Both the position numbers and the translations under genes were made by a program. The notes beneath the pieces were generated by a model. The model did not search any database. It was not told the DNA's origin and worked only from the letters and a program-made list of their open reading frames with translations. A stretch of DNA of 64,000 nucleotides from a virus: positions 117,031-181,030 of IMG/VR virus record IMGVR_UViG_3300035698_016797, one strand, 5' to 3'. Positions 1,616-64,000 of the stretch are shown here, piece by piece. Each line of letters begins with the position of its first letter. Within the stretch, counting starts at the first letter, position 1.

Positions 1616-1627
1616 AACCTTTTCCTC

Positions 1628-50915: not shown

Positions 50916-51092
50916 TTAATCCCTTTCTGGCAACTTCGCGGTTGTTTGTTTGTATGGTCCAGCGGAAGCTTTGCAAGCTGGACATTTAACAGAATCAGAA
51001 GCTGCCTGTGCAGGTGTAACGCTAAACACTCTACCGCAAGATTTGCACTTTGCATTTGTCGTGTCGTATACCTTACCAGTGGTTTTTTGCAT
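50916..51092 (-). CDS. Zinc-ribbon protein (58 aa, below the ORF-track cutoff)
   Basis: Read manually: MQKTTGKVYDTTNAKCKSCGRVFSVTPAQAASDSVKCPACKASAGPYKQTTAKLPERD; SD AAGGA. Confidence 0.65.
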   Translation of the reverse strand: MQKTTGKVYDTTNAKCKSCGRVFSVTPAQAASDSVKCPACKASAGPYKQTTAKLPERD

Positions 51093-51103
51093 TGTAATTT
51101 TCC

Positions 51104-51346
51104 TTATAGTTCAAATTCGTCATTCAAGAAGCGTAATACCTTTTGCATCTCTTCTATTTTGACTCTTAAAATAATTGATTGATCCCTACTGGGCGTGGGC
51201 ATGGCTATATCAACCATTCCTTTGTCTTCTGGATTTTCTGTAATATCTTCTGATTTAGCCAGTGTGATATTGACATTTTCTCCAGTTGAACCTCCTGTGG
51301 CGGAGTCAATATGAATCACATGAGCTTTGGTTACTAAGCGTGCCAT
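51104..51346 (-). CDS. Hypothetical protein (80 aa)
   Basis: SD GAGGAG; tiles in the operon. Confidence 0.55.
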   Translation of the reverse strand: MARLVTKAHVIHIDSATGGSTGENVNITLAKSEDITENPEDKGMVDIAMPTPSRDQSIILRVKIEEMQKVLRFLNDEFEL

Positions 51347-51802
51347 TTATTTACTCTCCTCTGCGCTTGCGGTTTCTTGTGACAATTTTTCCATTGATTC
51401 AATTAAAACCTCGTATTCTTTTTTGATGGTTTCTAGGGCTTTTCCGAAATCTGGCCTGTCGTCATCTCCAACACCACGCTTTGCGTATGCTTGAAGCATT
51501 TTCAAATTACAGTCTGCATGATCCAAATGATGAAGGCCACTTTCGCTATCAAAATCTTCTCCCATGAACCAATATAGCATATGTCTAAGCATGGCTGCAA
51601 ACGGCCTTGTCCAACGCATTCCTTTTTCCCAGTTGCGAGCACTATATTTTACGGCTCCATATGTGAAAACCATTGCAGTTCCAATTAGAGCGTCCCACGG
51701 CATCAAATCTAACCTTGGCTTGCCATTGTCAAATTTGGCGGCAGTTTTACCTCCAATTTTATATGAGTCTCCGTCAACTTTTATTGCTTTTTCTTTTACC
51801 AT
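51347..51802 (-). CDS. dATP/dGTP diphosphohydrolase domain protein, DUF5664-like (start ATG 51802)
   Basis: KFDNGKPRLDLMP...FTYGAVKYSARNWEKG...RH...GEDFDSESGLHHLDHA. Confidence 0.85.
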   Translation of the reverse strand: MVKEKAIKVDGDSYKIGGKTAAKFDNGKPRLDLMPWDALIGTAMVFTYGAVKYSARNWEKGMRWTRPFAAMLRHMLYWFMGEDFDSESGLHHLDHADCNLKMLQAYAKRGVGDDDRPDFGKALETIKKEYEVLIESMEKLSQETASAEESK

Positions 51803-51823
51803 CGTCACTTCCTTTCTAATCAT

Positions 51824-51851
51824 ATAATAGCACCTATTTATATAAATGCAA
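51824..51851 (-). promoter_or_regulatory. Leftward sigma70-type promoter
   Basis: Minus strand TTGCAT-N16-TATTAT with TG one base upstream of the -10 box (extended -10). Confidence 0.55.
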
Positions 51852-51869
51852 CTTTTTTCTGAACAAAAT

Positions 51870-51898
51870 TTGACTTTTCTCAACATATGCAGTATACT
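51870..51898 (+). promoter_or_regulatory. Rightward sigma70-type promoter for tRNA block 1
   Basis: TTGACT (51870-51875)-N17-TATACT (51893-51898). Confidence 0.8.
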
Positions 51899-51919
51899 AT
51901 GCGTAAAGGAGATCGTCAG

Positions 51920-52000
51920 ATGAAAAACTTATATATCAACTTATCCTCACTCAGTTTGTACTGCCTGTATTTTTCGGGCAGTCGTAAGGAGGACTTGTAG
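51920..52000 (+). CDS. Leader peptide 1 (26 aa, MKNLYINLSSLSLYCLYFSGSRKEDL), putative attenuator
   Basis: SD AAAGGAG; lies between a promoter and a terminator; 12 consecutive Leu/Ser/Tyr/Cys/Phe codons. Confidence 0.8.
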   Translation: MKNLYINLSSLSLYCLYFSGSRKEDL

Positions 52001-52030
52001 GCATATAATAATGTCGATCAGAAGAAAGTC

Positions 52031-52061
52031 AAACCCCTCCTTAACTGGATGGGGTTTTTTT
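52031..52061 (+). terminator. Intrinsic terminator/attenuator 1
   Basis: AAACCCCTCC-TTAACT-GGATGGGG followed by 7 T; its 5' arm can instead pair with TAAGGAGG (51985-51992). Confidence 0.8.
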
Positions 52062-52068
52062 ATGTATT

Positions 52069-52163
52069 GGAAAGGTGGCTGAGTCTGGATTAAGGCGGTG
52101 CTCTTGAAAAGCATTGAGCGGCGGTAACGTCCTCCGTGGGTTCAAATCCCACCCTTTCCGCCA
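52069..52163 (+). tRNA. trnS: tRNA-Ser(TGA)
   Basis: Cloverleaf, loop CTTGAAA, long variable arm, G73, encoded CCA. Confidence 0.92.
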
Positions 52164-52168
52164 ACAAT

Positions 52169-52301
52169 GGATTGGTAAGTAATTGGCAGCTGTCCTGTGG
52201 GTAGTACTGAAAGCTGAAGGCTAATGGGTGATTGAAGGCCGCACCCCAGCAGAAGAACAATACAAGCCTTAGACGTTCGGGTTCGAATCCCGACCAATCC
52301 T
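52169..52301 (+). ncRNA. tRNA-like structured RNA (133 nt) with no canonical anticodon arm
   Basis: Acceptor GGATTGG/CCAATCC, D-arm AGT-AATTGGCA-GCT, T-arm TCGGG-TTCGAAT-CCCGA; about 85 nt between the D and T arms; no encoded CCA. Confidence 0.65.
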
Positions 52302-52308
52302 ACAATGA

Positions 52309-52393
52309 GGGTGTGTTGGACAGGTGGTGAGTCCAGTAGACTGTAAATCTACCGCAATAAGCTTTGGAGGTTCGATTCCTTCCATGCCCACCA
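52309..52393 (+). tRNA. trnY: tRNA-Tyr(GTA)
   Basis: Loop CTGTAAA, long variable arm, CCA. Confidence 0.92.
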
Positions 52394-52405
52394 AAAAAAA
52401 TGTTT

Positions 52406-52425
52406 AGCTCATTGAAAATTGAAAA
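52406..52425 (+). promoter_or_regulatory. boxA-like antitermination element, copy 1
   Basis: AGCTCATTGAAAATTGAAAA; 17/20 identical to 56530-56549; resembles rrn boxA TGCTCTTTAACAATT. Confidence 0.55.
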
Positions 52426-52449
52426 GTGTCTGATATAGTTAGAACAGAT

Positions 52450-52536
52450 GGCCGTGTGGCGGAATTGGCAGACGCGCTAGACTCAAAATCTGGTGTTCGC
52501 AAGGGCGTGTGGGTTCGAGTCCCACCATGGCTACCA
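52450..52536 (+). tRNA. trnL: tRNA-Leu(CAA)
   Basis: Loop CTCAAAA, long variable arm, CCA. Confidence 0.92.
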
Positions 52537-52583
52537 ATCAACGTAATAATTCTGTGATAAATAGTAAAAAGGAGGATTTTATA

Positions 52584-52820
52584 ATGTTAAAGGCCACACA
52601 TTATTCTGGCGACGGAAAAGTGATAAGTGTATATAAAAATGTATTCACATATCTTACAGGGGTTGCGAGTGAAATCACTCTTCTTATAGACAATGATAAG
52701 ACAAGAAGAATGAGAAAAAAATATGAGTCTGGTAAAGGTATGATTGTACCAGAAGTTGAGTATTCAAAATATACTTCTATAACGATTTTTGGTAATGTGG
52801 TGGTTGAAAAAGATAATTAG
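52584..52820 (+). CDS. Hypothetical protein (78 aa; start ATG 52584)
   Basis: SD AAGGAGG; the longer track ORF extends into tRNA-Leu. Confidence 0.6.
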   Translation: MLKATHYSGDGKVISVYKNVFTYLTGVASEITLLIDNDKTRRMRKKYESGKGMIVPEVEYSKYTSITIFGNVVVEKDN

Positions 52821-52827
52821 AAGAGGA

Positions 52828-52903
52828 TGAGCAATAGCCAACGTGGTCAAGGCGCTGGTCTGAAAAACCAGAGACCTCAGTTCGATTCTGAGTTGCTCAA
52901 CCA
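52828..52903 (+). tRNA. trnF: tRNA-Phe(GAA)
   Basis: Loop CTGAAAA, 76 nt, CCA. Confidence 0.88.
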
Positions 52904-52962
52904 TTTGACAATAGAAGAAATTGTACGATATTATTACTAGTGCGTATAAAGAACTAAATGAT

Positions 52963-53050
52963 GGTCGAGTGGCGGAATTGGCATACGCACTTGGTTGAGG
53001 GCCAAGGACACAGTAGTGTATTGAGAGTTCGAGTCTCTCCTCGACTACCA
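52963..53050 (+). tRNA. trnL: tRNA-Leu(GAG)
   Basis: Loop TTGAGGG, long variable arm, CCA. Confidence 0.9.
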
Positions 53051-53070
53051 AATTTGAGAATGTAAGTAAT

Positions 53071-53155
53071 GCCCCGGTGGCGGAATTGGCAGACGCGCCA
53101 GATTTAGGATCTGGTGTCGAAAGGCGTGCAGGTTCGAGACCTGTCTGGGGCACCA
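53071..53155 (+). tRNA. trnL: tRNA-Leu(TAG)
   Basis: Loop TTTAGGA, long variable arm, CCA. Confidence 0.92.
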
Positions 53156-53175
53156 ACAATAGAAAGGGACAGATT

Positions 53176-53457
53176 ATGGCTAGAGTAAAAATCAACATGC
53201 CTGGTAACGACCCTGGTGCAAGAAGCATCATCGTTAATGACACTGATCTCACTGGATGTGTAGTGAGTATGGATCTTTCGATTGATCCAACTCAACATCC
53301 AGAAGTTGGACTGAAACTATTTGCAACAGACGTAAAGTTTGAAGGAGATGCAAATATCGTTATCAATGGAATAGAAATACCACAAGAATTGTGTGAAAAA
53401 ATCGCAGATGCTTTGCGCTATGCTTCTGCAAGTGAGCAGCAGAAAGATTCAACATAA
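53176..53457 (+). CDS. Hypothetical protein (93 aa; start ATG 53176)
   Basis: SD GAAAGGG; MARVKINMPG... Confidence 0.55.
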   Translation: MARVKINMPGNDPGARSIIVNDTDLTGCVVSMDLSIDPTQHPEVGLKLFATDVKFEGDANIVINGIEIPQELCEKIADALRYASASEQQKDST

Positions 53458-53466
53458 GGAAAGTGC

Positions 53467-53557
53467 GGAGGGTTGCCAGAGCGGCCTATTGGTCCTGCTT
53501 GGAAAGCAGTGAGTCCCTCTGTGGGACACGAGAGTTCGAATCTCTCACCCTCCGCCA
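53467..53557 (+). tRNA. trnS: tRNA-Ser(GGA)
   Basis: Loop TTGGAAA, long variable arm, G73, CCA. Confidence 0.9.
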
Positions 53558-53563
53558 CTACAC

Positions 53564-53884
53564 ATGTCAACACCAACATTTGACGCCCATGGACTGAAAC
53601 ATATGGAAGTAGCTCCGAAGCTTGAAGATTTTTTTCTTAAGCACGGAGCACCAATCAGAGTTATCACTGGAAAATCTCACATGATGAGGTTGATTTTAAT
53701 AGAACTGATGGCAAATTATGACCTAGAAGGATATCATCCAAACTTCAATAATACTGGAGAGGTTGTTGTAATTGAAAGGAATCGTAATGGTAATAAAAGT
53801 ACAAAAGCTAACGGACGTCCACTTGGCACAAAGAGCTTGCGCAATGACAACTTCAGGACGAAGGTCAGGAATAGACCTAGATAA
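53564..53884 (+). CDS. Stand-alone Smr-domain-like protein
   Basis: FDAHGLKHMEVAPKLEDFF...IRVITGKS...NTGEVVV matches the Smr pattern LDLHG...EA...L..F...IIHGKG...G...V; the last ~33 codons overlap the next gene. Confidence 0.6.
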   Translation: MSTPTFDAHGLKHMEVAPKLEDFFLKHGAPIRVITGKSHMMRLILIELMANYDLEGYHPNFNNTGEVVVIERNRNGNKSTKANGRPLGTKSLRNDNFRTKVRNRPR

Positions 53885-54302
53885 ACTATACCAGTGTGAA
53901 CACTCTCCTGTTAGAACTCAAATATTTTGGATAGAGATGTTAAACATTCCAACGTTTGTTTCCGTCCACTTTGTAAGACACAAGATAGGCGTTGAACACT
54001 TCGCAACAAGTAATAGGCCAGATAGGGGAACTGGAGAAGCCGACAGAATGACGCCAATTAACCACGGTATGCTCATTAATGCACAAGCACTAATAAACAT
54101 GGCAAAGAAGAGGTTGTGTTATCATGCGTCAAAAGAAACAAGGGAAACTATGATTGCAATCCTTAAGCAAATCAAAGTCGTTGATTCAGGTCTTTCTAAA
54201 CGAATGGTTCCAGAGTGTGTATATAGAGGAAAGATTTGTCACGAATTGAAACAGTGTGATTTTATGAAGGGAGCAATAGATCACTGTACGGATAGACGTT
54301 GA
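53787..54302 (+). CDS. thyX: Short ThyX/Thy1-like flavin-dependent thymidylate synthase
   Basis: SD GAAAGGA before ATG 53787; EHSP, HFVRHK...SNRPDR, INAQALINMAKKRLC...VPEC motifs. Confidence 0.7.
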   Translation: MVIKVQKLTDVHLAQRACAMTTSGRRSGIDLDKLYQCEHSPVRTQIFWIEMLNIPTFVSVHFVRHKIGVEHFATSNRPDRGTGEADRMTPINHGMLINAQALINMAKKRLCYHASKETRETMIAILKQIKVVDSGLSKRMVPECVYRGKICHELKQCDFMKGAIDHCTDRR

Positions 54303-54310
54303 CGACTAAT

Positions 54311-54397
54311 GGCCGGATGGCGGAATTGGCAGACGCAACGGACTTAAAATCCGTTATCCAAAAGGGTGTGGGGGTTCGATTCCCCCTTCGGCCACCA
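54311..54397 (+). tRNA. trnL: tRNA-Leu(TAA)
   Basis: Loop CTTAAAA, long variable arm, CCA. Confidence 0.92.
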
Positions 54398-54432
54398 ATA
54401 ATAAATATAGAATACAGACCGTAGGAGAAAAC

Positions 54433-55545
54433 ATGAATTTATCAGAACCAAGCAATATATGTATTAAACCATGGTATGATCAAACCATAGATATGTCTGG
54501 GTGCTGGAGTTGTTGTGGAAACGTCAAAGACAGTGGAGCTATATTTTACGATGAGGATTGGAAAGGTCCATATGTTGGAGATGTTGATCACTGGAATAGT
54601 CCAGAAATGCAGAAATTTAGGAAGGATATGCTAGAAGGAGGAGCCAGCATTGCCTGCGGTATGGCAAAGTGTCCACAAAGATATCGTTCTGCATCAATAG
54701 GAGATAGAATTTTAGAGTTGAAACAAGGTTATAACATCAAAGATGAAAAGTCAAAATCTCAAATAGCAGAAGCCATAGAGAACAATAGACTTATTCTCGA
54801 TTACTCTGCTAAAAAAATTACATACATAGTTACAATGGCTTGTAATTCAAAATGTGCATATTGTTTTCAGATAAGCAAAAGAAAAGATGGTAGTCTAAAT
54901 CCTCCAGAAGGGTATGAAGATCATATTATACCAATTTTGACGAGTGCTAAAGCGGTAAGACTTGCTGGAGGAGAGGTGTTCGTACTTTCAGATAAAAAGT
55001 TGGATAAGTTTTTTGGACACAAAGATTGGGAAAATGTAGAACATGTGTGTGTTGTTACAAATGGAACACTATTGACGCCTGAAAGATATGAAAAATATGC
55101 AGCTAATGGCCCACTTAGCAACATTGAAATTAGTCTAAACACAATGAGCGCAGAAGAGATGTTGAATGAAACAGAAGATATGCTGTTCAAATGCGAAGAT
55201 AACATGAGGGGAATATATGAAAAATATCCAGACCACTGTGTTACAACGTTGAACGTTGCCATGTCTATAAATATCATAGACAGAATTGACGAAGTATTAG
55301 AGTTTGTAAAAAAGTATGGAATAAAAGAGATATTGATTCATCATATAAATGGAACAGTAATGGAATTGAGCGGTGTTGGACATCTTAATCCATACTGTAA
55401 AGAAGGCTATTCAGAAGAAGTTCACGAAAGACTTTTAAAGGTGGTTGATGTTGCGAAACAATTTACAAAAGAGAATGGAATCGGCCTAAGATATAGTACC
55501 ATTCCAATGTCCCTGGGAGAAATGAAGAAAGAGATGGCACAGTAG
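54433..55545 (+). CDS. Radical SAM protein with N-terminal SPASM-like domain (370 aa), paralog of 37196-38311
   Basis: CNSKCAYC, AGGEV, TNG, ISLNT; N-terminal CIKPW...CC...WKGPYVGD shared with the first copy. Confidence 0.8.
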   Translation: MNLSEPSNICIKPWYDQTIDMSGCWSCCGNVKDSGAIFYDEDWKGPYVGDVDHWNSPEMQKFRKDMLEGGASIACGMAKCPQRYRSASIGDRILELKQGYNIKDEKSKSQIAEAIENNRLILDYSAKKITYIVTMACNSKCAYCFQISKRKDGSLNPPEGYEDHIIPILTSAKAVRLAGGEVFVLSDKKLDKFFGHKDWENVEHVCVVTNGTLLTPERYEKYAANGPLSNIEISLNTMSAEEMLNETEDMLFKCEDNMRGIYEKYPDHCVTTLNVAMSINIIDRIDEVLEFVKKYGIKEILIHHINGTVMELSGVGHLNPYCKEGYSEEVHERLLKVVDVAKQFTKENGIGLRYSTIPMSLGEMKKEMAQ

Positions 55546-55609
55546 TCAAGTGGTAAGACGCTGGTCTGCAAAACCAGTTACGTGGGTTCGATTCCCACCT
55601 GTGTCTCCA
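55536..55609 (+). tRNA. trnC: tRNA-Cys(GCA)
   Basis: Loop CTGCAAA, U73, CCA; its first 10 nt overlap the radical SAM stop. Confidence 0.92.
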
Positions 55610-55623
55610 CAGAAAGGCTTACA

Positions 55624-56058
55624 ATGAAAATTAAGAACTTTTCAGGGCACTACGGATTCCTAAGCAATTTCTATGTTGAAAAAAATGGAAAGACGGCAGA
55701 GCATTATTTTCAAGCTTCCAAAACTCATGATAGAAAGTGGCAAGATCTCGTTAAGCTTCAGCATTCTCCAGAGGCTGCAAAAAAGTTTGGTAGATCGTTG
55801 CCTCTAAGAAAAGATTGGCAAAGTGTAAAAGTTGAGATAATGAGAATCGTTTTGGAACGTAAGTTTTCAGATCCAGAACTAAAACAAAAGCTTTTGGAAA
55901 CTGGAAATAGAGAATTAGTAGAAGGAAATACATGGCATGATAATTTCTGGGGAGATTGCAAATGTCACAAGTGCAGACATATTAAGGGTCGAAACGTATT
56001 AGGTATCTTGCTCATGAAAGTAAGGGATATGTTGAGATCTTTCGAAGAAGCAGAGTAG
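55624..56058 (+). CDS. NADAR (YbiA-like) family protein (start ATG 55624)
   Basis: FLSNFY...AEHYFQASK...AKKFGR...MRIVLERKF...LLETGNRELVEGNTWHDNFWG...GRNVLGILLMKVR. Confidence 0.9.
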   Translation: MKIKNFSGHYGFLSNFYVEKNGKTAEHYFQASKTHDRKWQDLVKLQHSPEAAKKFGRSLPLRKDWQSVKVEIMRIVLERKFSDPELKQKLLETGNRELVEGNTWHDNFWGDCKCHKCRHIKGRNVLGILLMKVRDMLRSFEEAE

Positions 56059-56150
56059 GAGAGGTGCCAGAGTGGTTTATCGGGACAGTTTGCTAAACTG
56101 TTGGATCATGAGATGTGGTTCCCAGGGTTCGAATCCCTGTCTCTCCGCCA
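56058..56150 (+). tRNA. trnS: tRNA-Ser(GCT)
   Basis: Loop TTGCTAA, long variable arm, G73, CCA. Confidence 0.9.
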
Positions 56151-56177
56151 ACAAACGTAAAAAAAGTTTCAAAAAGC

Positions 56178-56207
56178 TTGACATAGTTCTTAATACAGGT
56201 ATAGTAT
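56178..56207 (+). promoter_or_regulatory. Sigma70-type promoter for tRNA-fMet and block 2
   Basis: TTGACA (56178-56183)-N16-TATAGT, or N18-TAGTAT; A-tracts upstream. Confidence 0.75.
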
Positions 56208-56221
56208 AGGTAGATTTAGAT

Positions 56222-56300
56222 TGCGGAATGGAGAAGTCCGGCTTAACTCGCTTCGCTCATAACGAAGAGACCGTGGGTTCAAATCCCACTTCCGCTACCA
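56222..56300 (+). tRNA. trnM: tRNA-Met(CAT), initiator-like
   Basis: Loop CTCATAA; U1.U72 mismatch and A11-U24 pair as in fMet tRNAs; lacks the three G-C anticodon-stem pairs. Confidence 0.8.
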
Positions 56301-56316
56301 TTAAGGAAAACAGCAA

Positions 56317-56391
56317 ATGATTAGTTCAATTAGAAAATGGCGCAATAACGGTACAGGAAAAACGGGGGACTACTGCGCCTTGACCCCCTAG
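56317..56391 (+). CDS. Leader peptide 2 (24 aa, MISSIRKWRNNGTGKTGDYCALTP), putative attenuator
   Basis: SD AAGGA; lies ahead of a strong terminator; 13 consecutive Ile/Arg/Lys/Trp/Asn/Gly/Thr codons. Confidence 0.8.
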   Translation: MISSIRKWRNNGTGKTGDYCALTP

Positions 56392-56415
56392 TTGATCATT
56401 CATTTGATTATATAC

Positions 56416-56448
56416 AAGACGAGGCGCTTAGGTGCCTCGTCTTTTTTT
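56416..56448 (+). terminator. Intrinsic terminator/attenuator 2
   Basis: AAGACGAGGCGC-TTAG-GTGCCTCGTCTT plus T-tract; its 5' arm can instead pair with GCGCCTTG (56375-56382). Confidence 0.85.
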
Positions 56449-56450
56449 AT

Positions 56451-56524
56451 GCGACTGTAGCATAGTGGTAATGCGCTGGACTTCCACTCCAGTCAGGAGG
56501 GTTCGATTCCCTCTAGTCGCTCCA
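56451..56524 (+). tRNA. trnG: tRNA-Gly(TCC)
   Basis: Loop CTTCCAC, U73, CCA. Confidence 0.92.
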
Positions 56525-56529
56525 GAAAA

Positions 56530-56549
56530 AGCTCCTTGACAATTGAATA
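56530..56549 (+). promoter_or_regulatory. boxA-like antitermination element, copy 2
   Basis: AGCTCCTTGACAATTGAATA; GCTCCTTGACAATT matches E. coli rrn boxA GCTCTTTAACAATT at 12/14. Confidence 0.6.
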
Positions 56550-56563
56550 AGATGGTGTAGAGT

Positions 56564-56641
56564 AGGTGAGTAGCTCAATTAGGCTAGAGCAGCGGTCTCC
56601 AAAACCGCAGGTTGCAGGTTCGATTCCTGTCTCACCTGCCA
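56564..56641 (+). tRNA. trnW: tRNA-Trp(CCA)
   Basis: Loop CTCCAAA, G73, CCA. Confidence 0.92.
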
Positions 56642-56656
56642 AACAAGGGTAACAAA

Positions 56657-56908
56657 ATGAATAAAGCAGCAATATTAGCAGCATACGACGATGATCAAGC
56701 AGAAATTTTAGCAGCATATGTCAACGTAGCATTAAGAGCAGATGAAGTGATAGAGTTCATAAAAAGAAAATATGGCGTTACTAGCGAAGATGGTTTTACA
56801 TGTATGTATATACTGAGACTGTCACAGGCACTAGATAGGCTGAAGGCAACAACAGGAGGACTTAACGATGGACAAGCCGATGAAGATGTATATTCTAGTG
56901 AAGAATGA
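56657..56908 (+). CDS. Hypothetical protein (83 aa; start ATG 56657)
   Basis: SD AAGGG; MNKAAILAAY... Confidence 0.5.
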   Translation: MNKAAILAAYDDDQAEILAAYVNVALRADEVIEFIKRKYGVTSEDGFTCMYILRLSQALDRLKATTGGLNDGQADEDVYSSEE

Positions 56909-57197
56909 TGTTGACTTAGGACATGCAATGTTGGCAGTTGCACATGGTGTGGCAGCTTGTATGAGACAATACAAGGATGATGAAGATTTGAATGAATGGC
57001 TTCTCGACTCCTTTAGGAAGGTTGTTTGCAAGGTTAACCAAAAAGAGTTTGATGCCGCAAAAACCCTTCTTGAAAAAAGAGTTATCATGACAGAGTGTGC
57101 GTTAGACAATCAGGAAACTGCCATTGTCTTTTGTCCGCGCAAAGAGTGGCCAAAACCGTTTAGTTGGTATAAGCTATATAGAACACAGAAAGATTAA
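56868..57197 (+). CDS. Peptidyl-tRNA hydrolase, Pth2 family
   Basis: KMYILVKNDVDLGHAMLAVAH...W...RKVVCKV...ETAIVFCP. Confidence 0.8.
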   Translation: MDKPMKMYILVKNDVDLGHAMLAVAHGVAACMRQYKDDEDLNEWLLDSFRKVVCKVNQKEFDAAKTLLEKRVIMTECALDNQETAIVFCPRKEWPKPFSWYKLYRTQKD

Positions 57198-57200
57198 ACA

Positions 57201-57488
57201 ATGAAAAAACTAAAATTGCCAGATATTATTGAATATTTAAACGACAAAATTGACGCATTGTGTGAGAGGAAAAATGCTAGAAAACCAGCAAAGGCTGGAA
57301 AGATTTTTGGAGATTCTGTTGTTAAAGAATCTGAAAGACAAGAATTAGAACAGCAAATATCTACAATCTATTCTGTAATAGATATTTTAGATCCAAACGG
57401 TAAATACCTTGAAAAGTACACAGATATTCATCTTGGATGTCAAAATTGGCCAAATTGTGATTCTGTCGGGTGTGGAAATGGAAAATGA
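57201..57488 (+). CDS. Hypothetical protein (95 aa)
   Basis: ORF track; C-terminal GCQNWPNCD. Confidence 0.5.
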   Translation: MKKLKLPDIIEYLNDKIDALCERKNARKPAKAGKIFGDSVVKESERQELEQQISTIYSVIDILDPNGKYLEKYTDIHLGCQNWPNCDSVGCGNGK

Positions 57489-57494
57489 AAATGT

Positions 57495-57568
57495 GCGGGT
57501 GTAGCATAGTGGTAATGCACCAGCTTGCCAAGTTGGCTAGGAGAGTTCGATTCTCTCTATCCGCTCCA
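57495..57568 (+). tRNA. trnG: tRNA-Gly(GCC)
   Basis: Loop TTGCCAA, U73, CCA. Confidence 0.92.
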
Positions 57569-57582
57569 AAAGGAGAAACAAA

Positions 57583-57900
57583 ATGGTACAAACTATACCG
57601 TGTGAATGTGGTGAGACATTGATAGGACTTGATGGAATGTGTGTCGGGTGTTCAAAAGACAGACGCCCTCCGGTTTGTCCAAGCTGTCACTTTAGACATT
57701 TTGAAACGGAAAGATGTAACTTTGAAATGTTAAATGCAGAAGATACACGAACGATGATGCTGTTGGAACTTGCAGAGCATAAGCTAAATGAGGCACATGA
57801 AATAACCTCAGATGGTGAAGTTCACAAGTCGATTGATGAAGCTATGATCATAATGACGATGATCAAAGGTACTTTGTCCGACAGAATAAACGAAAGGTAG
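57583..57900 (+). CDS. Hypothetical Cys-rich protein (105 aa)
   Basis: SD AAGGAG; CECG, CVGC and CPSC motifs. Confidence 0.6.
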   Translation: MVQTIPCECGETLIGLDGMCVGCSKDRRPPVCPSCHFRHFETERCNFEMLNAEDTRTMMLLELAEHKLNEAHEITSDGEVHKSIDEAMIIMTMIKGTLSDRINER

Positions 57901-57904
57901 TGGA

Positions 57905-58135
57905 ATGACAATTGAAGATGCAATAGATCACTGTTATGAGGTTGCAGAAGAGGCTGAGAAGTTTCAATGCTCACCATGCACTAATGATCATTTGCAATTG
58001 GCAAAATGGTTGATAGAGTTAAAGAAGAGACGTGAAGAATGTATGTGCCAGCTTAGCTCAGCGGTAGAGCCGCTGTTTTGTAAACAGCAGGTCGTCGGTT
58101 CGATTCCGACAGCTGGCTCCAAACTAAGAAAGTAA
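57905..58135 (+). CDS. Hypothetical protein whose frame runs through all of tRNA-Thr
   Basis: SD AAGG; MTIEDAIDHC...LAKWLIELK; no stop before 58133. Confidence 0.45.
   Translation: MTIEDAIDHCYEVAEEAEKFQCSPCTNDHLQLAKWLIELKKRREECMCQLSSAVEPLFCKQQVVGSIPTAGSKLRK
58047..58121 (+). tRNA. trnT: tRNA-Thr(TGT)
   Basis: Loop TTTGTAA, CCA. Confidence 0.92.
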
Positions 58136-58139
58136 AAAC

Positions 58140-58559
58140 ATGGATAATGATACAACCACAAACGAAGAGTTTGAGATTTTCAAGAAAGAATGTCTGTATT
58201 GGATAAATGAGTTCTGCCTTCATGATTGGGACGTAGAATTTTGGCACGAAGATATGTCTGAGGCGAAAGCCAGAACAGACTGGACTTGTGAAGGTAAGCT
58301 TGCCAGAATTACTTTTTCAAAAGACTGGAGTCATGTACACAAGACTGATGTTGCAATAAAAGCTTCCGCATTTCACGAGGCTACTGAACTATTACTTGCA
58401 GAGCTGAGCGCAATTTCAAACTGTGTTGTTGTTGATCACAAAAGAACTGACAGGGCAGTACATAGCGTTATACACAGACTTCAGCACATGTTGATTGATA
58501 GAGAGCGTGATGAAATCCAAATTGATATTGTTCAAAGTTTAAAAACAGAAGAGGTTTAA
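58140..58559 (+). CDS. Hypothetical protein with degenerate zincin-like motif (139 aa)
   Basis: LHDWDV...ARITFSKDW...AFHEATELLL. Confidence 0.5.
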   Translation: MDNDTTTNEEFEIFKKECLYWINEFCLHDWDVEFWHEDMSEAKARTDWTCEGKLARITFSKDWSHVHKTDVAIKASAFHEATELLLAELSAISNCVVVDHKRTDRAVHSVIHRLQHMLIDRERDEIQIDIVQSLKTEEV

Positions 58560-58560
58560 T

Positions 58561-59286
58561 ATGCCTAGTGCAATGGTCCCATTTAGCAAGCTTCCAAAAC
58601 CAGAGTCTATAACGGTGGCAAAGGACAGGGGTACAGCATATGGGTACGACGTAATCCTTACAGAAGAATGTATGGAATTTTGTCATAGATACGCTACTAA
58701 GATGCACGAGGTATCAGGTTGTGTAAATATCAATCATGCCATGAGTGGAAAAAAGGGCGAATTTGTAACGTGTGCAGTCTTTATGCATTTAGCAGAAAAG
58801 CTCAAAAGTATGAAGATGAAAGTTATTCATCATGGATTCAGAAGCGAATATTCGTACGACGAAGAACATTTCAAGGATGATATGATGATGGTAATGGGGA
58901 AAAGAGAACATGTACAGTTTGAAATAAAAACATCTGCATGTAATGATCTGGAAAATAGAAGGCCGGGCGGCTTAAGCTGTTCTTTTGATTCTATTCTGAT
59001 AAAGATGGTATACATTTTTTGTCTAGCACCAAAAGAAAATCCTAACCATGTAAGAATTATAGGATGTGCAACACCAAATCATTTAAGAAGGCATTGCATT
59101 ATAAGACACAGGGGAGATATAATGAGCAATAAGGGTGGAGTCATAAAGGAAAGACGTCTGACGGATTGGTCTATCAGATGTAGAAATATGATACCTTTAA
59201 CAGAGGGAACAGTAGAAGATTTGAAATTTCGAAGATATAAGAAAATGGACATTAAATACAACGATATCGGTGGTAAAGTTAGATAG
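58561..59286 (+). CDS. Possible PD-(D/E)xK nuclease-fold protein (241 aa)
   Basis: GKKGE...DD...FEIKT pattern; SD GAGG. Confidence 0.4.
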   Translation: MPSAMVPFSKLPKPESITVAKDRGTAYGYDVILTEECMEFCHRYATKMHEVSGCVNINHAMSGKKGEFVTCAVFMHLAEKLKSMKMKVIHHGFRSEYSYDEEHFKDDMMMVMGKREHVQFEIKTSACNDLENRRPGGLSCSFDSILIKMVYIFCLAPKENPNHVRIIGCATPNHLRRHCIIRHRGDIMSNKGGVIKERRLTDWSIRCRNMIPLTEGTVEDLKFRRYKKMDIKYNDIGGKVR

Positions 59287-59292
59287 ATATGA

Positions 59293-59367
59293 TCGCCAGT
59301 AGCTCAATGGTAGAGTATCCGGCTGTTAACCGGAAGGTTGAAGGTTCGAACCCTTCTTGGCGAGCCA
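59293..59367 (+). tRNA. trnN: tRNA-Asn(GTT)
   Basis: Loop CTGTTAA, T1-A72, G73, CCA. Confidence 0.92.
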
Positions 59368-59386
59368 AATTAAGAAAGGTACAACA

Positions 59387-59686
59387 ATGTCATCAGGTCA
59401 ATATGGATTCTATGGGAAAACAGGCGTATTTAACAATGATGGATTCTTTAACGAAGGACAAAGGGTTCCTATTAAACCGTGTTCGTGCGGTGGCAATGTA
59501 CAAATATATTGTGAGTACGAAGAAATGATAGGGTGGAAAGGAACAGATTTTCAAATTGTTTGCCGCAACTGTAAGAGGCAGACTAAAATTGGAATAGATT
59601 TTGCACTGTTAATAGACAATTGGAACGACGACGATGTTTTGCCAAAAGAAAAACATCACGCATGGTCCTTACCTAATAGCCCTTGA
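59387..59686 (+). CDS. Lar-like zinc-binding protein (start ATG 59387)
   Basis: KPCSCGG...IVCRNC...LIDNWN resembles the Lar restriction-alleviation family. Confidence 0.55.
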   Translation: MSSGQYGFYGKTGVFNNDGFFNEGQRVPIKPCSCGGNVQIYCEYEEMIGWKGTDFQIVCRNCKRQTKIGIDFALLIDNWNDDDVLPKEKHHAWSLPNSP

Positions 59687-59710
59687 CAAAGTGAACACAC
59701 GGTATATATT
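59683..59710 (+). promoter_or_regulatory. Possible internal sigma70-type promoter
   Basis: TTGACA (59683-59688)-N16-TATATT (59705-59710). Confidence 0.5.
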
Positions 59711-59736
59711 GTAAGAAGTTAAAAGAAAGGAATACA

Positions 59737-60024
59737 ATGATAGCAGATATTATAAACGCATCCTTTGAATTACTTGCAGGATTGTTCATAGCTAACAATT
59801 GCAGGTGTATTGTGAGGGATAAGGAAATCAAAGGTGTAAGTGCAATTTCAATATTGTTCTTTACGTTCTGGGGCTACTGGAACCTCTACTACTATCCAAG
59901 CTTAGGACAGATATGGAGTTTCATAGGTGGTATCGTTGTGGTAAGCGCAAATACGGCCTGGATAGGATTAATTGCATACTATAGGATTAAAACAAGGAGT
60001 TTGGAAAATGGACAAACCAGCTAG
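59737..60024 (+). CDS. Small 3-TM membrane protein, PQ-loop/SemiSWEET-like (95 aa)
   Basis: Three hydrophobic segments; RDKEIKGVS...WGYWNLYYY. Confidence 0.5.
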   Translation: MIADIINASFELLAGLFIANNCRCIVRDKEIKGVSAISILFFTFWGYWNLYYYPSLGQIWSFIGGIVVVSANTAWIGLIAYYRIKTRSLENGQTS

Positions 60025-60544
60025 AGACGATGTTAACTGGATAGAAACCACAAACGGAAGATTGGCATATCCACTCAATCCAAAACCTGAAGACATGTTC
60101 ATTGACGATATTGCACACTCTTTGTCGTTGCAATGCAGGTTTACGGGTCACTGTTCTAAGTTCTACAGCGTAGCAGAGCACTGTGTGCTTGGTTCGAGAC
60201 TCTGCGACAGTCCAAGGTGGATGTTACTACACGACGCATCGGAGGCATATCTTACAGACATAGCAAGGCCAGTAAAGAGACTGTTACCAAAAGTTAAGGA
60301 AATTGAAAACGATTTACTGTGGTGTGTGGCCGCAAGGTTTAACCTTATATGGCCAATGCCGGAATGTGTCAAAATAACAGATGATAGAATGCTCATTACT
60401 GAAAGAAATCAAATTATGCCAAAAAGTCAACACGTTTGGGGAATAGATAAGATTGGTTTGGAACCGTACGATATTAAGATTGAATATTGGACTCCAGAGG
60501 TTGCAGAGGCAGAATTCTTCAAAAGATTTTACGAACTGAGTTAG
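60008..60544 (+). CDS. HD-family 5'-deoxynucleotidase, YfbR/YfdR-like (start ATG 60008)
   Basis: IDDIAHSLSLQCRFTGH...YSVAEHC...LLHDASEAYLTDI..PVK...KITDDRML. Confidence 0.8.
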   Translation: MDKPARDDVNWIETTNGRLAYPLNPKPEDMFIDDIAHSLSLQCRFTGHCSKFYSVAEHCVLGSRLCDSPRWMLLHDASEAYLTDIARPVKRLLPKVKEIENDLLWCVAARFNLIWPMPECVKITDDRMLITERNQIMPKSQHVWGIDKIGLEPYDIKIEYWTPEVAEAEFFKRFYELS

Positions 60545-60554
60545 GAGTAAAACA

Positions 60555-60776
60555 ATGCTTACTGTTGAATGTAAAATTAACGGTTATCCGATTACAACTA
60601 CGCTTATACGCAATGTTACAAAGGAGCAGAATTGGGACAAAGCAATACACACGTATGAAGTTAAACACTCAAGCAATAACGGTAAGCTTATAGAGTTCTT
60701 GATAGAACACATTAGAAACCAGGGGTCAGAAAAGCTTGTAGAAATAGTAATGAAGGAAATTTACGGGCGCTTGTAG
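60555..60776 (+). CDS. Hypothetical protein (73 aa)
   Basis: SD AGGAG; its stop TAG is U8-A9-G10 of tRNA-Lys. Confidence 0.6.
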   Translation: MLTVECKINGYPITTTLIRNVTKEQNWDKAIHTYEVKHSSNNGKLIEFLIEHIRNQGSEKLVEIVMKEIYGRL

Positions 60777-60845
60777 CTCAGCCAGGTTTAGAGCATCGGA
60801 CTTTTAATCCGAGGGTCCAGGGTTCGAATCCCTGCGGGCGCACCA
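60767..60845 (+). tRNA. trnK: tRNA-Lys(TTT)
   Basis: Loop CTTTTAA, CCA. Confidence 0.92.
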
Positions 60846-60861
60846 AAATCAGGAGATAACA

Positions 60862-61065
60862 ATGGATAGTAAAGATGGAACACTTTGTCCCAGGTGGGAA
60901 GATCCTGTCCAAAGAAATATCATTCCAGGACAGGATATGCAAAGAGCGGGACATGTTGACATCATTTTCGTTGGCGAAGAAGAGGAGACTGCTCATTCGT
61001 CATATCTCGAAGAAGATTTTTCAAACGACGAATTAATAGGAGCGAGTGGGCGATTAGCTCAATAG
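60862..61065 (+). CDS. Hypothetical acidic protein (67 aa)
   Basis: SD AGGAG; its stop lies inside the tRNA-Arg(ACG) D-loop. Confidence 0.5.
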   Translation: MDSKDGTLCPRWEDPVQRNIIPGQDMQRAGHVDIIFVGEEEETAHSSYLEEDFSNDELIGASGRLAQ

Positions 61066-61124
61066 AATAGAGCACCTGGCTACGAACCAGGAGGTTGGGG
61101 GTTTGAATCCCTCATCGCTCGCCA
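61048..61124 (+). tRNA. trnR: tRNA-Arg(ACG)
   Basis: Loop CTACGAA, A20, CCA; variant T-loop TTTGAAT. Confidence 0.88.
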
Positions 61125-61131
61125 CATTTTT

Positions 61132-61668
61132 ATGGAATATCTAAGATCGGAAAAAGAATACATCTATTTGAATTACGTATGTGAAAGAGTAGAGTCCTAT
61201 TTTCCAGAAGCACAAACAATGCTTGATGTAGGTAGTAATACCGGCCTTTATCTGAAAAGGTTCGAATGGATTCCAAGTGTGACAGCTATAGATATCTTAA
61301 CAGTACCAAGCTTTGATTTTGTCAACGGAATCAAGGCAAACTTTCTTGAGCATGACTTTGAAGGTCAGTCTTTTGAAGTAGTAACGTGTCTGCAAATGCT
61401 TGAACACGTAAAAAATCCAAGAGACTTTTTTGTTAAGATGGTTGAGTTGACAAAAGGAGTTTTGATAGTATCTTTACCATACAAGTGGAGTGCAGACAGT
61501 ATTGCAGACCACATTCACGATCCAATTGACGACAAGAAGATGATGGATTGGTTTGGAGCTTTCCCCACACACTGTTGTACCATTACGGAGCCGGAAAATA
61601 GAGGTATTAGAGTGATATGCCTATTCAGATTCTACGACGAAAAGCAGAAAGAGAGATATTATGGCTAA
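61132..61668 (+). CDS. Class I SAM-dependent methyltransferase (178 aa)
   Basis: MLDVGSNTG...AID...FEVVTCLQMLEHV. Confidence 0.8.
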   Translation: MEYLRSEKEYIYLNYVCERVESYFPEAQTMLDVGSNTGLYLKRFEWIPSVTAIDILTVPSFDFVNGIKANFLEHDFEGQSFEVVTCLQMLEHVKNPRDFFVKMVELTKGVLIVSLPYKWSADSIADHIHDPIDDKKMMDWFGAFPTHCCTITEPENRGIRVICLFRFYDEKQKERYYG

Positions 61669-61960
61669 TGCAATTGTGATCAGCAGGTTTGGAAAACTTC
61701 TGGGAGTTTTTACTCAAAAACAAAAGGCATGGCAATCTATACAGGAATGTGAAGAGGAAGAAGACTTGGAGAAGATTCTTGTGATGGTTGATTCCAGACC
61801 AACAGCAAGAGAGGAAGTTGTTCCATTAACATATGCAAAGCTATGCAAGCAGTTGTCTGAAATGGGTCGTGCAGACATAAGGTCTGTTACAAAGCTTGAA
61901 CCGGCTCAAATTAGATATGGACTATGGCAAGTTGAAATTAATGTCCCAGTAGCTCAGTAG
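61661..61960 (+). CDS. Hypothetical protein (99 aa)
   Basis: Overlaps the upstream stop; its own stop lies in the tRNA-Arg(TCT) D-loop. Confidence 0.55.
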   Translation: MANAIVISRFGKLLGVFTQKQKAWQSIQECEEEEDLEKILVMVDSRPTAREEVVPLTYAKLCKQLSEMGRADIRSVTKLEPAQIRYGLWQVEINVPVAQ

Positions 61961-61976
61961 ATAGAGCAACTGACTT

Positions 61977-62582
61977 TAACTAAAAAGGAGCGTTCTATGT
62001 GGAAGATTGAGAAGATTGTTAGCAAGGGCGATTACGATTACGCTGTTGTTTTCAAACATCCCACAGCAACCAAACACGGGTATGTATTGGAACATCGGAT
62101 AGTAATAGAGAATAGTCTGGGTAGGCTTCTCAATCCAAATGAAGTTGTTCATCATAAAAACGGTGATCGAAAAGACAATCGCTTAGAAAATCTTAAAGTA
62201 ATGAAACGTAAAGAACATTGTTCTAAACATGGATTGAAACAAGGCAGGTTATGGGTAGTATTAAAATGCCCTGAATGCGCTAAGATTTTCGAGAAACCAA
62301 AGAATAAATCCTTTCTTCAACAGGGCACGAGTTACACAACTTGTTCACCACAATGTAGAGGAAGATTTTCTAGAAAGATGCAACTTCAAGGAATAACCAT
62401 AGAACTGGAGAGGGCTATATCGGGGAATCTCGTAAGTAAGTATAGGAAATACTCCACGACAATCCCGAGCAAACCATTAACAATGGGATGCGTAGAGGCC
62501 ATACGCCCTCAGTCTGGAATGGCTAAGAGATGGTCCAGCCAGCAAGCTTGAAAAAGTGGTTATGGAAACATGATGCTGGAAG
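61977..62582 (+). mobile_element. Group I intron (606 nt) inserted after U34
   Basis: 5' exon ends in U and the intron ends in G. P1 CUU/GAG; P3 GAGGGC (62410-62415)/GCCCTC (62505-62510); P7 GGCCAT/ATGGTC; Q-like AATCCCGAGC; R-like AGAGGCCATAC; S-like AAGAGATGGTCC. Confidence 0.85.
61997..62551 (+). CDS. Intron-encoded HNH homing endonuclease (184 aa)
   Basis: LEHRIVIE..LGRLL...EVVHHKNGDRKDNRLENL, then CPEC...CSPQC; the 3' part reads through the intron core. Confidence 0.9.
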   Translation: MWKIEKIVSKGDYDYAVVFKHPTATKHGYVLEHRIVIENSLGRLLNPNEVVHHKNGDRKDNRLENLKVMKRKEHCSKHGLKQGRLWVVLKCPECAKIFEKPKNKSFLQQGTSYTTCSPQCRGRFSRKMQLQGITIELERAISGNLVSKYRKYSTTIPSKPLTMGCVEAIRPQSGMAKRWSSQQA

Positions 62583-62639
62583 CTAATCAGTAGGTCGTAG
62601 GTGCAAATCCTACCTGGGACACCAACTAGAAAGAACAAT

Positions 62640-63230
62640 ATGACACATTCAGATTTTGGACAAGACGTATATATCAGAGACAGATTCTTCCGTGGATCAA
62701 AGTCTGGGTGCTGTTTGGAGGCTGGTGCTCAAGATGGAGAATCCCACAGCAACACTCTTTTGTTTGAAGAGGAGCATGAGTGGGATAGAATTTTGATAGA
62801 GCCAGATCCAAAACACATGCAAGTTTTGAAGACAAGAAAGAATGGTAGAAAGTATTGTGCACCCCTGTGGGATGTAACCGGCGATACTGTGGTAATGAAC
62901 GACATCAATAAGAACGGATGGACCCACATAGATAAATATGGTCCTAAGAATGTAGAGATTGTCCACCAGTGGAATGCTGTCACAATCGGGATTAACGATG
63001 TGTTGCCACAATATACAGACTTGGTATCGCTGGACACAGAAGGATCAGAGCATGTAATTGTTGGAGCAATAGACTTTAGTAGATTCAAAATTGCAGTGTT
63101 CCTCATTGAAGCAAAGGAGTCAAGAGAATATATTGGTAAAATCCTCAAAAGAGAAGGGTATATATTCTACAATACAATCAAGCATGACGTAATCTATTAT
63201 GATCCAAAACTGATACAGCCGAAAGGATAG
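62640..63230 (+). CDS. FkbM-family methyltransferase (start ATG 62640)
   Basis: GQDVYI...LEAGAQDGESHSNT...ILIEP...VSLDTEGSE. Confidence 0.8.
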   Translation: MTHSDFGQDVYIRDRFFRGSKSGCCLEAGAQDGESHSNTLLFEEEHEWDRILIEPDPKHMQVLKTRKNGRKYCAPLWDVTGDTVVMNDINKNGWTHIDKYGPKNVEIVHQWNAVTIGINDVLPQYTDLVSLDTEGSEHVIVGAIDFSRFKIAVFLIEAKESREYIGKILKREGYIFYNTIKHDVIYYDPKLIQPKG

Positions 63231-63234
63231 TTAA

Positions 63235-63612
63235 ATGCTATTAGCAGTGCCAGAAGAAGAGAGAAAGCGTAAAAAAACGCTTCCAAAATATGTAGACGCC
63301 AACAACGTTGAACACATGAAGGCTATGCAAATCTTCTTTGAAACAGGAGGATTTCCAAGAGAGTTCGTAGAAGGTGTTCCAAAGGATATGGAATTTACAC
63401 AATTTTGGTTTGTACAACTTCTTGAAAAGTTGGCAAAGAAATGGGTACAATATAAATTGTCAGAGATTAAACCGGAGTCTACCGAGCCAGCAGATGCTGC
63501 TCCACCTCCAACTGTTGCAAAGGATGACTCCGGTCCTTCAGTGAAAAAGAGAGTTCGTAAACGTAAGCCAAAGACTAAAGAGGATACTAAAAGTGAAAAA
63601 ACGCAAAAGTAA
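63235..63612 (+). CDS. Hypothetical protein (125 aa)
   Basis: SD AAGGA; basic low-complexity C-terminus. Confidence 0.55.
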   Translation: MLLAVPEEERKRKKTLPKYVDANNVEHMKAMQIFFETGGFPREFVEGVPKDMEFTQFWFVQLLEKLAKKWVQYKLSEIKPESTEPADAAPPPTVAKDDSGPSVKKRVRKRKPKTKEDTKSEKTQK

Positions 63613-63632
63613 ATCTCGAATATGTCCCATGT

Positions 63633-63710
63633 TGGGGCATAGCTTAGTCTGGTTAAAGCATCCGTCTTATAAACGGAAGACCATGAGTTCAAATCTCATT
63701 GTCCCTACCA
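63633..63710 (+). tRNA. trnI: tRNA-Ile(TAT)
   Basis: Loop CTTATAA, A73, CCA; U1.U72 mismatch. Confidence 0.8.
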
Positions 63711-63714
63711 CATC

Positions 63715-64000
63715 ATGAACATGGTGAAAGAATACGTCGATGGCATCTCGCTTGTGGTCCCAGAGCAGTTCCCTACACTGCTTAAGGATCAGTACGACGA
63801 CATATGTAATGGTATAGGCGCAGCATGGATGCCGTTCAAGCTAAATCGAATCTGGGGCTTGAACTGCAAGGTGATAGGAGATATTCACGATTGTGGATAT
63901 GAATACGCAGAACCCACATGGTCTGCTAAACAGATTCAAGATTGGTTTTTTAAGGACAATTTGACAACATGGATCATTGCCAAGTCAAAATATAAGTGGC
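63715..64000 (+). CDS. Partial ORF running off the window; phospholipase A2-like/DUF1353-like motif
   Basis: Read manually: CNGIG...W...IHDCGY...K...D..F..NL. Confidence 0.4.
   Translation, partial: MNMVKEYVDGISLVVPEQFPTLLKDQYDDICNGIGAAWMPFKLNRIWGLNCKVIGDIHDCGYEYAEPTWSAKQIQDWFFKDNLTTWIIAKSKYKW

Follow-up and report, generated by a model that had tools for sequence, protein, structure and literature searches.

How do large phages regulate the expression of their tRNA arrays, and why do they carry such arrays? Both questions are raised by a 64,000-nucleotide (nt) stretch of viral DNA (the window), which forms the last 64 kb (positions 117031-181030) of the 181,030-bp IMG/VR virus record IMGVR_UViG_3300035698_016797 (genome G000). 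From window position 51870 onward it contains two blocks of tRNA genes, each preceded by a promoter, a small open reading frame (ORF), and a predicted terminator, and a third such block lies elsewhere in the record. It is likely that a ribosome-mediated transcription attenuator of the trp/ilv type stands at the head of each of the three blocks, with a leader ORF that serves as a roster, stringing together codons for which the block itself supplies tRNAs. The phage probably makes a tRNA block only when its roster codons are read slowly.

Leader cassettes precede three tRNA blocks

The G000 record has a G+C content of 41.9% and its ends share a 127-bp terminal repeat, indicating that it is circular or circularly permuted. 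tRNAs were called with ARAGORN, with and without intron search, and checked against Rfam (RF00005, gathering threshold, 51000-64000); ARAGORN reports 19 plus-strand tRNAs within 52069-63710, and Rfam confirms 18 of these. Block 1 (52069-56150, plus strand; ARAGORN and RF00005) has 10 tRNAs, Ser-TGA, Tyr-GTA, Leu-CAA, Phe-GAA, Leu-GAG, Leu-TAG, Ser-GGA, Leu-TAA, Cys-GCA, and Ser-GCT (three Ser, four Leu, and one each of Tyr, Phe, and Cys), with protein ORFs recognized by Pfam in between. The part of block 2 that lies in the window (56451-64000, plus strand; ARAGORN) codes for Gly-TCC, Trp-CCA, Gly-GCC, Thr-TGT, Asn-GTT, Lys-TTT, Arg-ACG, an intron-split Arg-TCT, and Ile-TAT, and past the circular wrap it continues with Lys-CTT and Arg-CCT, followed by a terminator hairpin. 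An initial annotation of the stretch had described block 1 as 10 tRNAs, all for Ser, Leu, Tyr, Phe, or Cys, with which ARAGORN agrees, and block 2 as nine tRNAs, a count that is reached only when the intron search adds Arg-TCT; the split gene thus accounts for the number. Block 3 has 11 tRNAs on the minus strand, from record position 6476 down to 2334, and is transcribed toward block 2; it codes for Ala, Pro, Gln, Ile-GAT, two Glu, His, two Val, Asp, and Gln.

The three cassettes have the same parts in the same order, namely a promoter, a Shine-Dalgarno sequence (AAGGAG, AAGGA, or AAGGAAAG, 6 to 9 nt ahead of the ATG), a leader ORF of 24 to 30 codons between the promoter and the first tRNA, and a terminator. 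The terminator stems (-14 to -20 kcal/mol, with T-runs) start 20 to 32 nt past the stop codon, and each terminator ends 6 to 11 nt before the first tRNA of its block. Promoters were identified by a consensus scan for sigma-70-type elements, scored as matches out of 12. In cassette 1 (plus strand), the promoter at 51870-51898 (TTGACT, 17 nt, TATACT; 10/12) is ∼20 nt 5' of the ribosome-binding site of the leader (AAGGAG, 51906-51911, 8 nt ahead of the ATG); the 26-codon leader ORF 1 (51920-52000) is followed by a predicted intrinsic terminator (52031-52061) with a bulged 10-bp stem (-14.1 kcal/mol) and a T-run, whose stem ends 11 nt before tRNA-Ser (52069).

Cassette 2 (plus strand) has a promoter at 56178-56205 (TTGACA, 16 nt, TATAGT; 11/12), a Shine-Dalgarno sequence (AAGGA) at 56303-56307, and the 24-codon leader ORF 2 (56317-56391). 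Its predicted intrinsic terminator (56416-56450; 12-bp stem, -20 kcal/mol, T7) abuts tRNA-Gly (56451) and would also block read-through from block 1 into block 2. The parts of cassettes 1 and 2 are as first annotated, but a tRNA-Met(CAT) gene (56222-56300, plus strand; ARAGORN; Rfam, 58.5 bits) between the second promoter and leader 2 had been omitted. Because it is upstream of attenuator 2 on the same transcript, tRNA-Met would be outside attenuator control. By sequence it has the 1:72 mismatch and A11 of an initiator-like tRNA but lacks the three G-C pairs of the anticodon stem; if it is an initiator, its placement outside the switch would be logical, since the sensor cannot start without one.

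Leader codons correspond to the tRNAs of their own block

Codons were assigned to anticodons with simple wobble rules (G34 reads C and U; U34 reads A and G; C34 reads G; A34 reads U, C, and A), and the background was taken from all 1,646 distinct ATG-started ORFs of 15 to 45 codons in the six frames of the whole genome. In leader 1, block-1 tRNAs read all 12 codons from codon 8 to codon 19, and together with codons 4 and 5 these sample 10 of the 10 block-1 anticodons, including four Leu and three Ser isoacceptors. Leader 2 likewise has 12 consecutive cognate codons (codons 6 to 17, with Arg-TCT counted in) and samples eight of the 11 block-2 anticodons when the tRNAs past the wrap are counted. 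Codons read by the tRNAs of blocks 1, 2, and 3 make up fractions of only 0.24, 0.30, and 0.36, respectively, of the long ORFs of this phage. Runs of 12 cognate codons occur in two of the 1,646 short ORFs for block 1 and in one for block 2; leader 1 is the only one with both a run of at least 12 and complete (10/10) block-1 coverage, and leader 2 the only one with a run of at least 12 for block 2. The codon-anticodon correspondence is far beyond chance and statistically overwhelming. The claim that the central codons of each leader are drawn only from its own block holds for codons 8 to 19 of leader 1 but not for codons 6 and 7 (Ile and Asn), and it holds for leader 2 at the amino acid level, with the qualification that its two Ile codons are ATT and the Ile anticodon is TAT.

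The initial annotation had predicted a third leader, for Ala, Val, Pro, His, Gln, Asp, and Glu tRNAs, outside the window, and this leader is found at record positions 6545-6637 on the minus strand. The promoter (record 6719-6691, minus strand; TTGACA-17-TAGTAT) is followed by the 30-codon leader ORF 3 (record 6637-6545, minus strand), which has a Shine-Dalgarno site, and by a predicted terminator (record 6513-6477, minus strand) with a 13-bp stem and a T-run that ends just before tRNA-Ala. Within codons 7 to 21 of leader 3, 13 of the 15 codons are read by block-3 tRNAs, and 10 of the 11 anticodons are sampled; it is one of five among the 1,646 short ORFs with its own run length and coverage.

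Leader composition tracks block content in related phages

A megablast search of GenBank phages gave no close relative of G000 and only isolated tRNA matches, and queries of viral contigs with one protein at a time (the terminase or the array's radical SAM protein) were likewise negative. Relatives were retrieved from IMG/VR records through terminase alignment; among the five large ones, tRNA arrays are present in four, and G003 has no tRNAs. The terminases of G001 and G002 are 58% and 53% identical, respectively, to that of G000, and each of these genomes again has an array of three blocks, with each block preceded by a -10 promoter element, a Shine-Dalgarno sequence, an ORF of 23 to 33 codons, and a strong terminator. 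Canonical predicted intrinsic terminators with T-runs are located just before the first tRNA in nine of nine cassettes. The tRNAs behind the leaders of G001 and G002 are spaced by 3 to 20 nt, suggesting that they are likely cotranscribed in these relatives.

The amino acids are distributed differently among the blocks of the three genomes, and the leaders differ accordingly. The His tRNA is with the Ala/Val/Pro set in G000 and with the Ser/Leu set in G001 and G002, and His codons are in the central run only of the leader that heads the His block; in G002, the block-2 leader has one extra His in its tail. Phe and Cys, which are with Ser/Leu in G000, are with Trp/Lys/Arg/Ile in G001, where that leader has Phe and Cys codons and the Ser/Leu leader has neither. 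Asn and Thr are with Gly/Lys/Arg in G000 and with the Glu/Val/Asp/Pro/Ala set in G001 and G002, and the Asn and Thr codons shift to that leader; Gly and Ile codons likewise track the block holding their tRNA across all three genomes. Amino acids with a tRNA in the block are present in its leader in 60 of 61 cases, versus 53 of 110 for amino acids without one (Fisher, 3e-13). The true pairing of leaders and blocks is the best of the six permutations in each genome, and when the nine block labels were shuffled 200,000 times, a match as good as the observed one never arose. Individual isoacceptors are distinguished too: in G002, ATT, GGT, AAA, and AAG are the codons in the leader that precedes Ile-GAT, Gly-GCC, Lys-TTT, and Lys-CTT, and ATA and GGA those in the leader that precedes Ile-TAT and Gly-TCC. 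The N termini of some leaders look homologous between genomes, and their cores differ in step with block content.

A similar picture emerges from the Logan contig L025, which codes for homologues of both genes adjoining leader 1. Its orthologous cassette precedes Ser-TGA, Leu-CAG, Phe, Leu-CAA, and Cys tRNAs, and although its DNA is essentially unalignable to leader 1, the ORF is still rich in Ser, Leu, Cys, Tyr, and Phe; retention of composition without DNA similarity points to selection on codon content and not on the peptide. A stem of different sequence is located at the same place as the internal hairpin of leader 1 (described below). The covariation of leader codons with anticodon content that had been proposed as a check is thus seen in G001, G002, and L025.

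Other searches around leader 1 were less informative. The closest terminase relative, a 147,980-bp JGI contig (69% identical), has no homologues of the two genes adjoining leader 1. One of these, a dGTP-diphosphohydrolase-like gene, is widespread in small phages, where 76 of 81 loci have no tRNA and none of the 81 has three or more.

Two side features of the related arrays are of note. In L025, a TROVE (Ro60-like) gene (738-2486, minus strand) is inside the tRNA array, between Cys-GCA and Leu-GAG. In G001 (C1:6000-22000, reverse strand; oriented 9343-9418), a tRNA with anticodon CTA, labeled Pyl by ARAGORN, is located between two blocks and is possibly an amber suppressor.

A predicted switch between terminator and antiterminator

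Transcription would begin at the sigma-70-type promoter, and a ribosome would load on the leader. With fast decoding of all roster codons, the ribosome would arrive at the stop codon and cover a segment close to the leader end (region 2), the terminator would form, and RNA polymerase would halt before the first tRNA. A ribosome lingering on any roster codon, for scarcity of the charged tRNA, would leave region 2 free; region 2 would then bind the terminator's 5' arm, letting polymerase enter the block. Such a unit would act as an OR-gate sensor of decoding capacity, in which any single slow codon suffices, and would exert negative feedback on the phage tRNA supply. From the sequence we infer leader translation, terminator efficiency, and stall-dependent read-through, together with the gating of a whole block; the trigger may be host tRNA loss after host shut-off, phage codon demand, starvation, or a tRNA-cleaving defense.

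The elements needed for such a switch are recognizable in folds of transcripts that stop just short of the terminator's 3' arm, with pairing forbidden for ∼30 nt around the A site. In these masked folds, the terminator 5' arm pairs with region 2 in all three G000 leaders. Region 2 of leader 1 (AAGGAGG, 51986-51992, plus strand) complements CCTCCTT of the terminator 5' arm (52036-52042; duplex, -8.7 kcal/mol), and the two pair while the A site is at codons 1 to 18 and no longer from codon 19. Region 2 of leader 2 (GCGCCTTG, 56375-56382, plus strand) has as its partner either CGAGGCGC of the terminator 5' arm (56420-56427), in a duplex of -14.3 kcal/mol that is reached by 1.4% of shuffles, or region 1 (GGCGC, 56339-56343, plus strand), which is within the Trp-Arg codons and pairs with region 2 in the minimum free energy (MFE) fold; the antiterminator is the fold obtained while the A site occupies codons 4 to 14. 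In leader 3, AGGGGCT pairs with AGCCCCT as long as the A site is within codons 1 to 15. The antiterminator pairing is lost in all three leaders once the modeled ribosome moves to the stop codon. In leaders 2 and 3, region 2 has an alternative partner, region 1, inside the roster (MFE folds), suggesting the classical 1:2, 2:3, and 3:4 layout. Leader 1 has a hairpin within the ORF (51961-51981, plus strand), with a 7-bp stem around the Phe codon in the MFE fold, which is a candidate pause or 1:2 element.

Similar features recur in the nine leaders of G000, G001, and G002 (three each). The stop codon is 20 to 32 nt before the terminator, region 2 sits 2 to 16 nt upstream of the stop codon in most, and the profile over ribosome positions has the expected shape in seven of nine, with the 5' arm sequestered on roster codons and freed near the stop. 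Complementarity between region 2 and the terminator is significant relative to shuffles in four of nine leaders (p, 0.002 to 0.014), and a Fisher combination of the nine p values, calculated by hand, is ∼3e-5. A trp-type terminator/antiterminator switch is therefore consistent with the modeled ribosome positions, which are not decisive. The reading of the leaders as ribosome-stalling attenuators, put forward in the initial annotation, gains support from the third leader, the covariation, and the region 2 pairing in all three leaders.

Several observations weigh against attenuation of the blocks. Full-length equilibrium folds keep the terminator whatever the ribosome position, and as the terminator always wins at equilibrium, the switch must be kinetic. 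The complementarity is no better than in shuffles in three of nine leaders, and within G000 it is only weakly better for leader 1 (p, 0.21) and leader 3 (p, 0.11), compared with leader 2 (p, 0.014). Leader 2 has no codon-level sampling of Ile-TAT, Lys-CTT, and Arg-CCT, the three most distal block-2 tRNAs. A separate leader before these three was sought and none was found, only the Lys/Arg-rich C terminus of a 125-amino-acid ORF (63235-63612); this tail ends 20 nt before tRNA-Ile(TAT), with Lys-CTT and Arg-CCT downstream, but there is no terminator between the ORF and tRNA-Ile(TAT), and the ORF is thus probably not a leader. The more distant relatives G004 (63% GC) and G005 have no convincing cassettes; one candidate leader in G005 has a fitting composition and was rejected as its terminator is missing.

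Promoter-like sites inside the blocks also belong with these observations. In block 1, near-consensus sites take up the spacers ahead of Leu-CAA (52412-52439) and Leu-GAG (52905-52934), others are in block 2, and G001 has a TTGACA...TATAAA element between a leader terminator and the first tRNA; part of each block may consequently be transcribed independently of the attenuator. The scan found 43 promoter-like sites versus 30.8 (standard deviation, 6.1) expected from shuffles, a modest excess. Basal transcription from internal sites is likely combined with attenuator-controlled read-through.

Alternative explanations

The same attenuators could have evolved for counterdefense, an explanation that was stressed in the initial annotation and that we regard as unlikely. 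The leaders would then register when anticodon nucleases or comparable defense systems cut or remove particular host tRNAs, and would switch on a replacement block. Phage tRNAs are known to offset tRNA-targeting defenses, and a roster that samples individual isoacceptors suits damage to particular tRNA species; the arrays also contain tRNA-related or nucleic-acid-modifying genes, including those for PTH2, NADAR, radical SAM, and methyltransferase proteins in G000 and the TROVE/Ro-like gene in L025. However, the rosters span nearly all amino acids, beyond the few tRNAs usually targeted by anticodon nucleases, and the sequence does not separate this trigger from plain supply-and-demand feedback.

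A second proposal is that the leaders are translated sensors acting without hairpin competition, through ribosome-dependent protection from Rho or from tRNA-precursor RNases, or through precursor stability. The weak or nonsignificant antiterminator complementarity of several leaders would fit such a route, as would the location of leader 2 directly 3' of tRNA-Met, which processing enzymes must excise. It is nevertheless improbable, given the strong canonical terminators with T-runs before the first tRNA in all nine cassettes, and region 2 segments that are consistently within reach of a ribosome at the stop codon.

Sensing of amino acid starvation in the manner of classical leaders, which would make tRNA output follow the nutrient state and not the abundance of tRNAs, has a slightly smaller chance of being correct. 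Since it is the supply of charged tRNA that governs stalling, read-through would also follow from a shortage of amino acids, but extra tRNA does not relieve such a shortage, and the rosters separate isoacceptors of one amino acid (ATA versus ATT and GGA versus GGT), which is pointless for amino acid sensing.

Finally, short ORFs are abundant (1,646 in the genome), but it is very improbable that the leaders are incidental ORFs or micropeptides, with terminators that only insulate the units and a codon match devoid of regulatory meaning, in view of run and coverage values that are unique in the genome, the finding of the predicted third case, rosters that include the expected amino acid in 60 of 61 cases and change with block content from one genome to the next, and conservation of composition but not of peptide or DNA sequence.

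Relationship to known attenuators and phage tRNA arrays

The closest parallels to the proposed tRNA-block attenuators are the multivalent attenuators of enterobacteria (ilvGMEDA, ilvBN, and thr, and also trpL, hisL, leuL, and pheL), which have a promoter, a codon-enriched short leader, 1:2, 2:3, and 3:4 hairpins, and a terminator before the first gene. As in the ilv and thr types, the ribosome position would pick terminator or antiterminator, and one leader would sense several amino acids. The phage units differ in regulating tRNA genes and interspersed phage ORFs, and not biosynthesis, transport, or synthetase genes. The roster has up to 10 isoacceptor-specific codons, mostly once or twice each, rather than the run of one to three amino acids typical of amino acid operons, and the tRNA would be restored rather than the amino acid, by phage-borne units of which there are three per genome. 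The Escherichia coli pheST operon, with its pheM leader, is a precedent for attenuation of a translation-apparatus gene in which slow cognate decoding is the signal, although it is bacterial, senses one amino acid, and controls a synthetase, whereas the phage units are viral and control tRNA genes.

T-box riboswitches also have a terminator/antiterminator switch that reports the state of a specific tRNA and has translation-related targets, but they are untranslated and bind uncharged tRNA through a specifier codon and the T-box sequence, whereas the phage elements have a Shine-Dalgarno sequence and an ORF. A T-box was considered and rejected, as the Rfam scan of 51000-64000 gave only tRNAs; the Rfam amino acid leader families (Trp, His, Leu, and Thr leaders) have no match in the same interval.

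Large tRNA clusters are shared with T4, T5, large mycobacteriophages, and huge phages, whose arrays are viewed as devices for codon usage or counterdefense and for which the literature searched treats tRNA content and benefit, and not transcription control by leader peptides. Full-text searches of a library of papers turned up no account of tRNA genes, whether of phages or of bacteria, being controlled by leader peptides, in agreement with the initial annotation, which knew of no account of attenuators on phage tRNA arrays. The parts and the logic are already known; what differs is the regulated product (tRNAs), a roster leader sampling up to 10 isoacceptors, and the viral setting with three parallel units.

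If the proposed attenuation is correct, decoding speed controls the tRNA supply of the phage in a closed loop, and ribosome-mediated attenuation extends from amino acid metabolism to the tRNA pool; the design predicts that depletion of one isoacceptor turns on one block. The leaders also offer a readout, from sequence only, of which tRNAs share a regulatory unit, and are usable for annotating the tRNA operons of uncultured phages, and as compact natural parts they could serve in synthetic tRNA-sensing circuits. Were the trigger tRNA cleavage, they would provide a sensor-coupled counterdefense built from only a short ORF and two hairpins. More tentatively, large phages may commonly use roster leaders to monitor the host tRNA pool one isoacceptor at a time, and could in particular detect anticodon-nuclease cleavage and respond by switching on the matching replacement block.

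Other features of the tRNA region

The tRNA-Arg(TCT) gene of block 2 (61943-62624, plus strand; ARAGORN intron search) is split by a 606-nt intron after anticodon position 34, and the joined exons give a perfect cloverleaf. The intron carries an HNH_3 endonuclease ORF (61997-62551) and matches no Rfam intron family at E values up to 1. A near-consensus sigma-70-like site (56536-56563) in the same block fills a short tRNA spacer; since it runs right up to the 5' end of tRNA-Trp, it cannot drive transcription of that gene. A hairpin with a short T-run, ∼20 nt past tRNA-Arg(CCT) (G000 351-426), separates block 2 from the minus-strand block that is transcribed toward it. This hairpin could terminate transcription in both directions, although ∼1.8 kb lie between it and the last minus-strand tRNA (Gln-CTG, 2334-2408).

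Protein genes within the arrays (Pfam) code for a Thy1-like fragment (53772-54302), a radical SAM protein (54433-55545), a NADAR protein (55624-56058), the peptidyl-tRNA hydrolase PTH2 (56868-57197), and methyltransferases (61132-61668 and 62640-63230). Upstream of the tRNA region, the window codes for the terminase, portal, and major head protein, and beside the structural genes is a single ORF of 5,506 codons (3297-19817, minus strand). ARAGORN also reports a tRNA-like gene with a four-base anticodon (aaac) at G000 31355-31431, which could be a false positive or a frameshift-suppressor-like tRNA.

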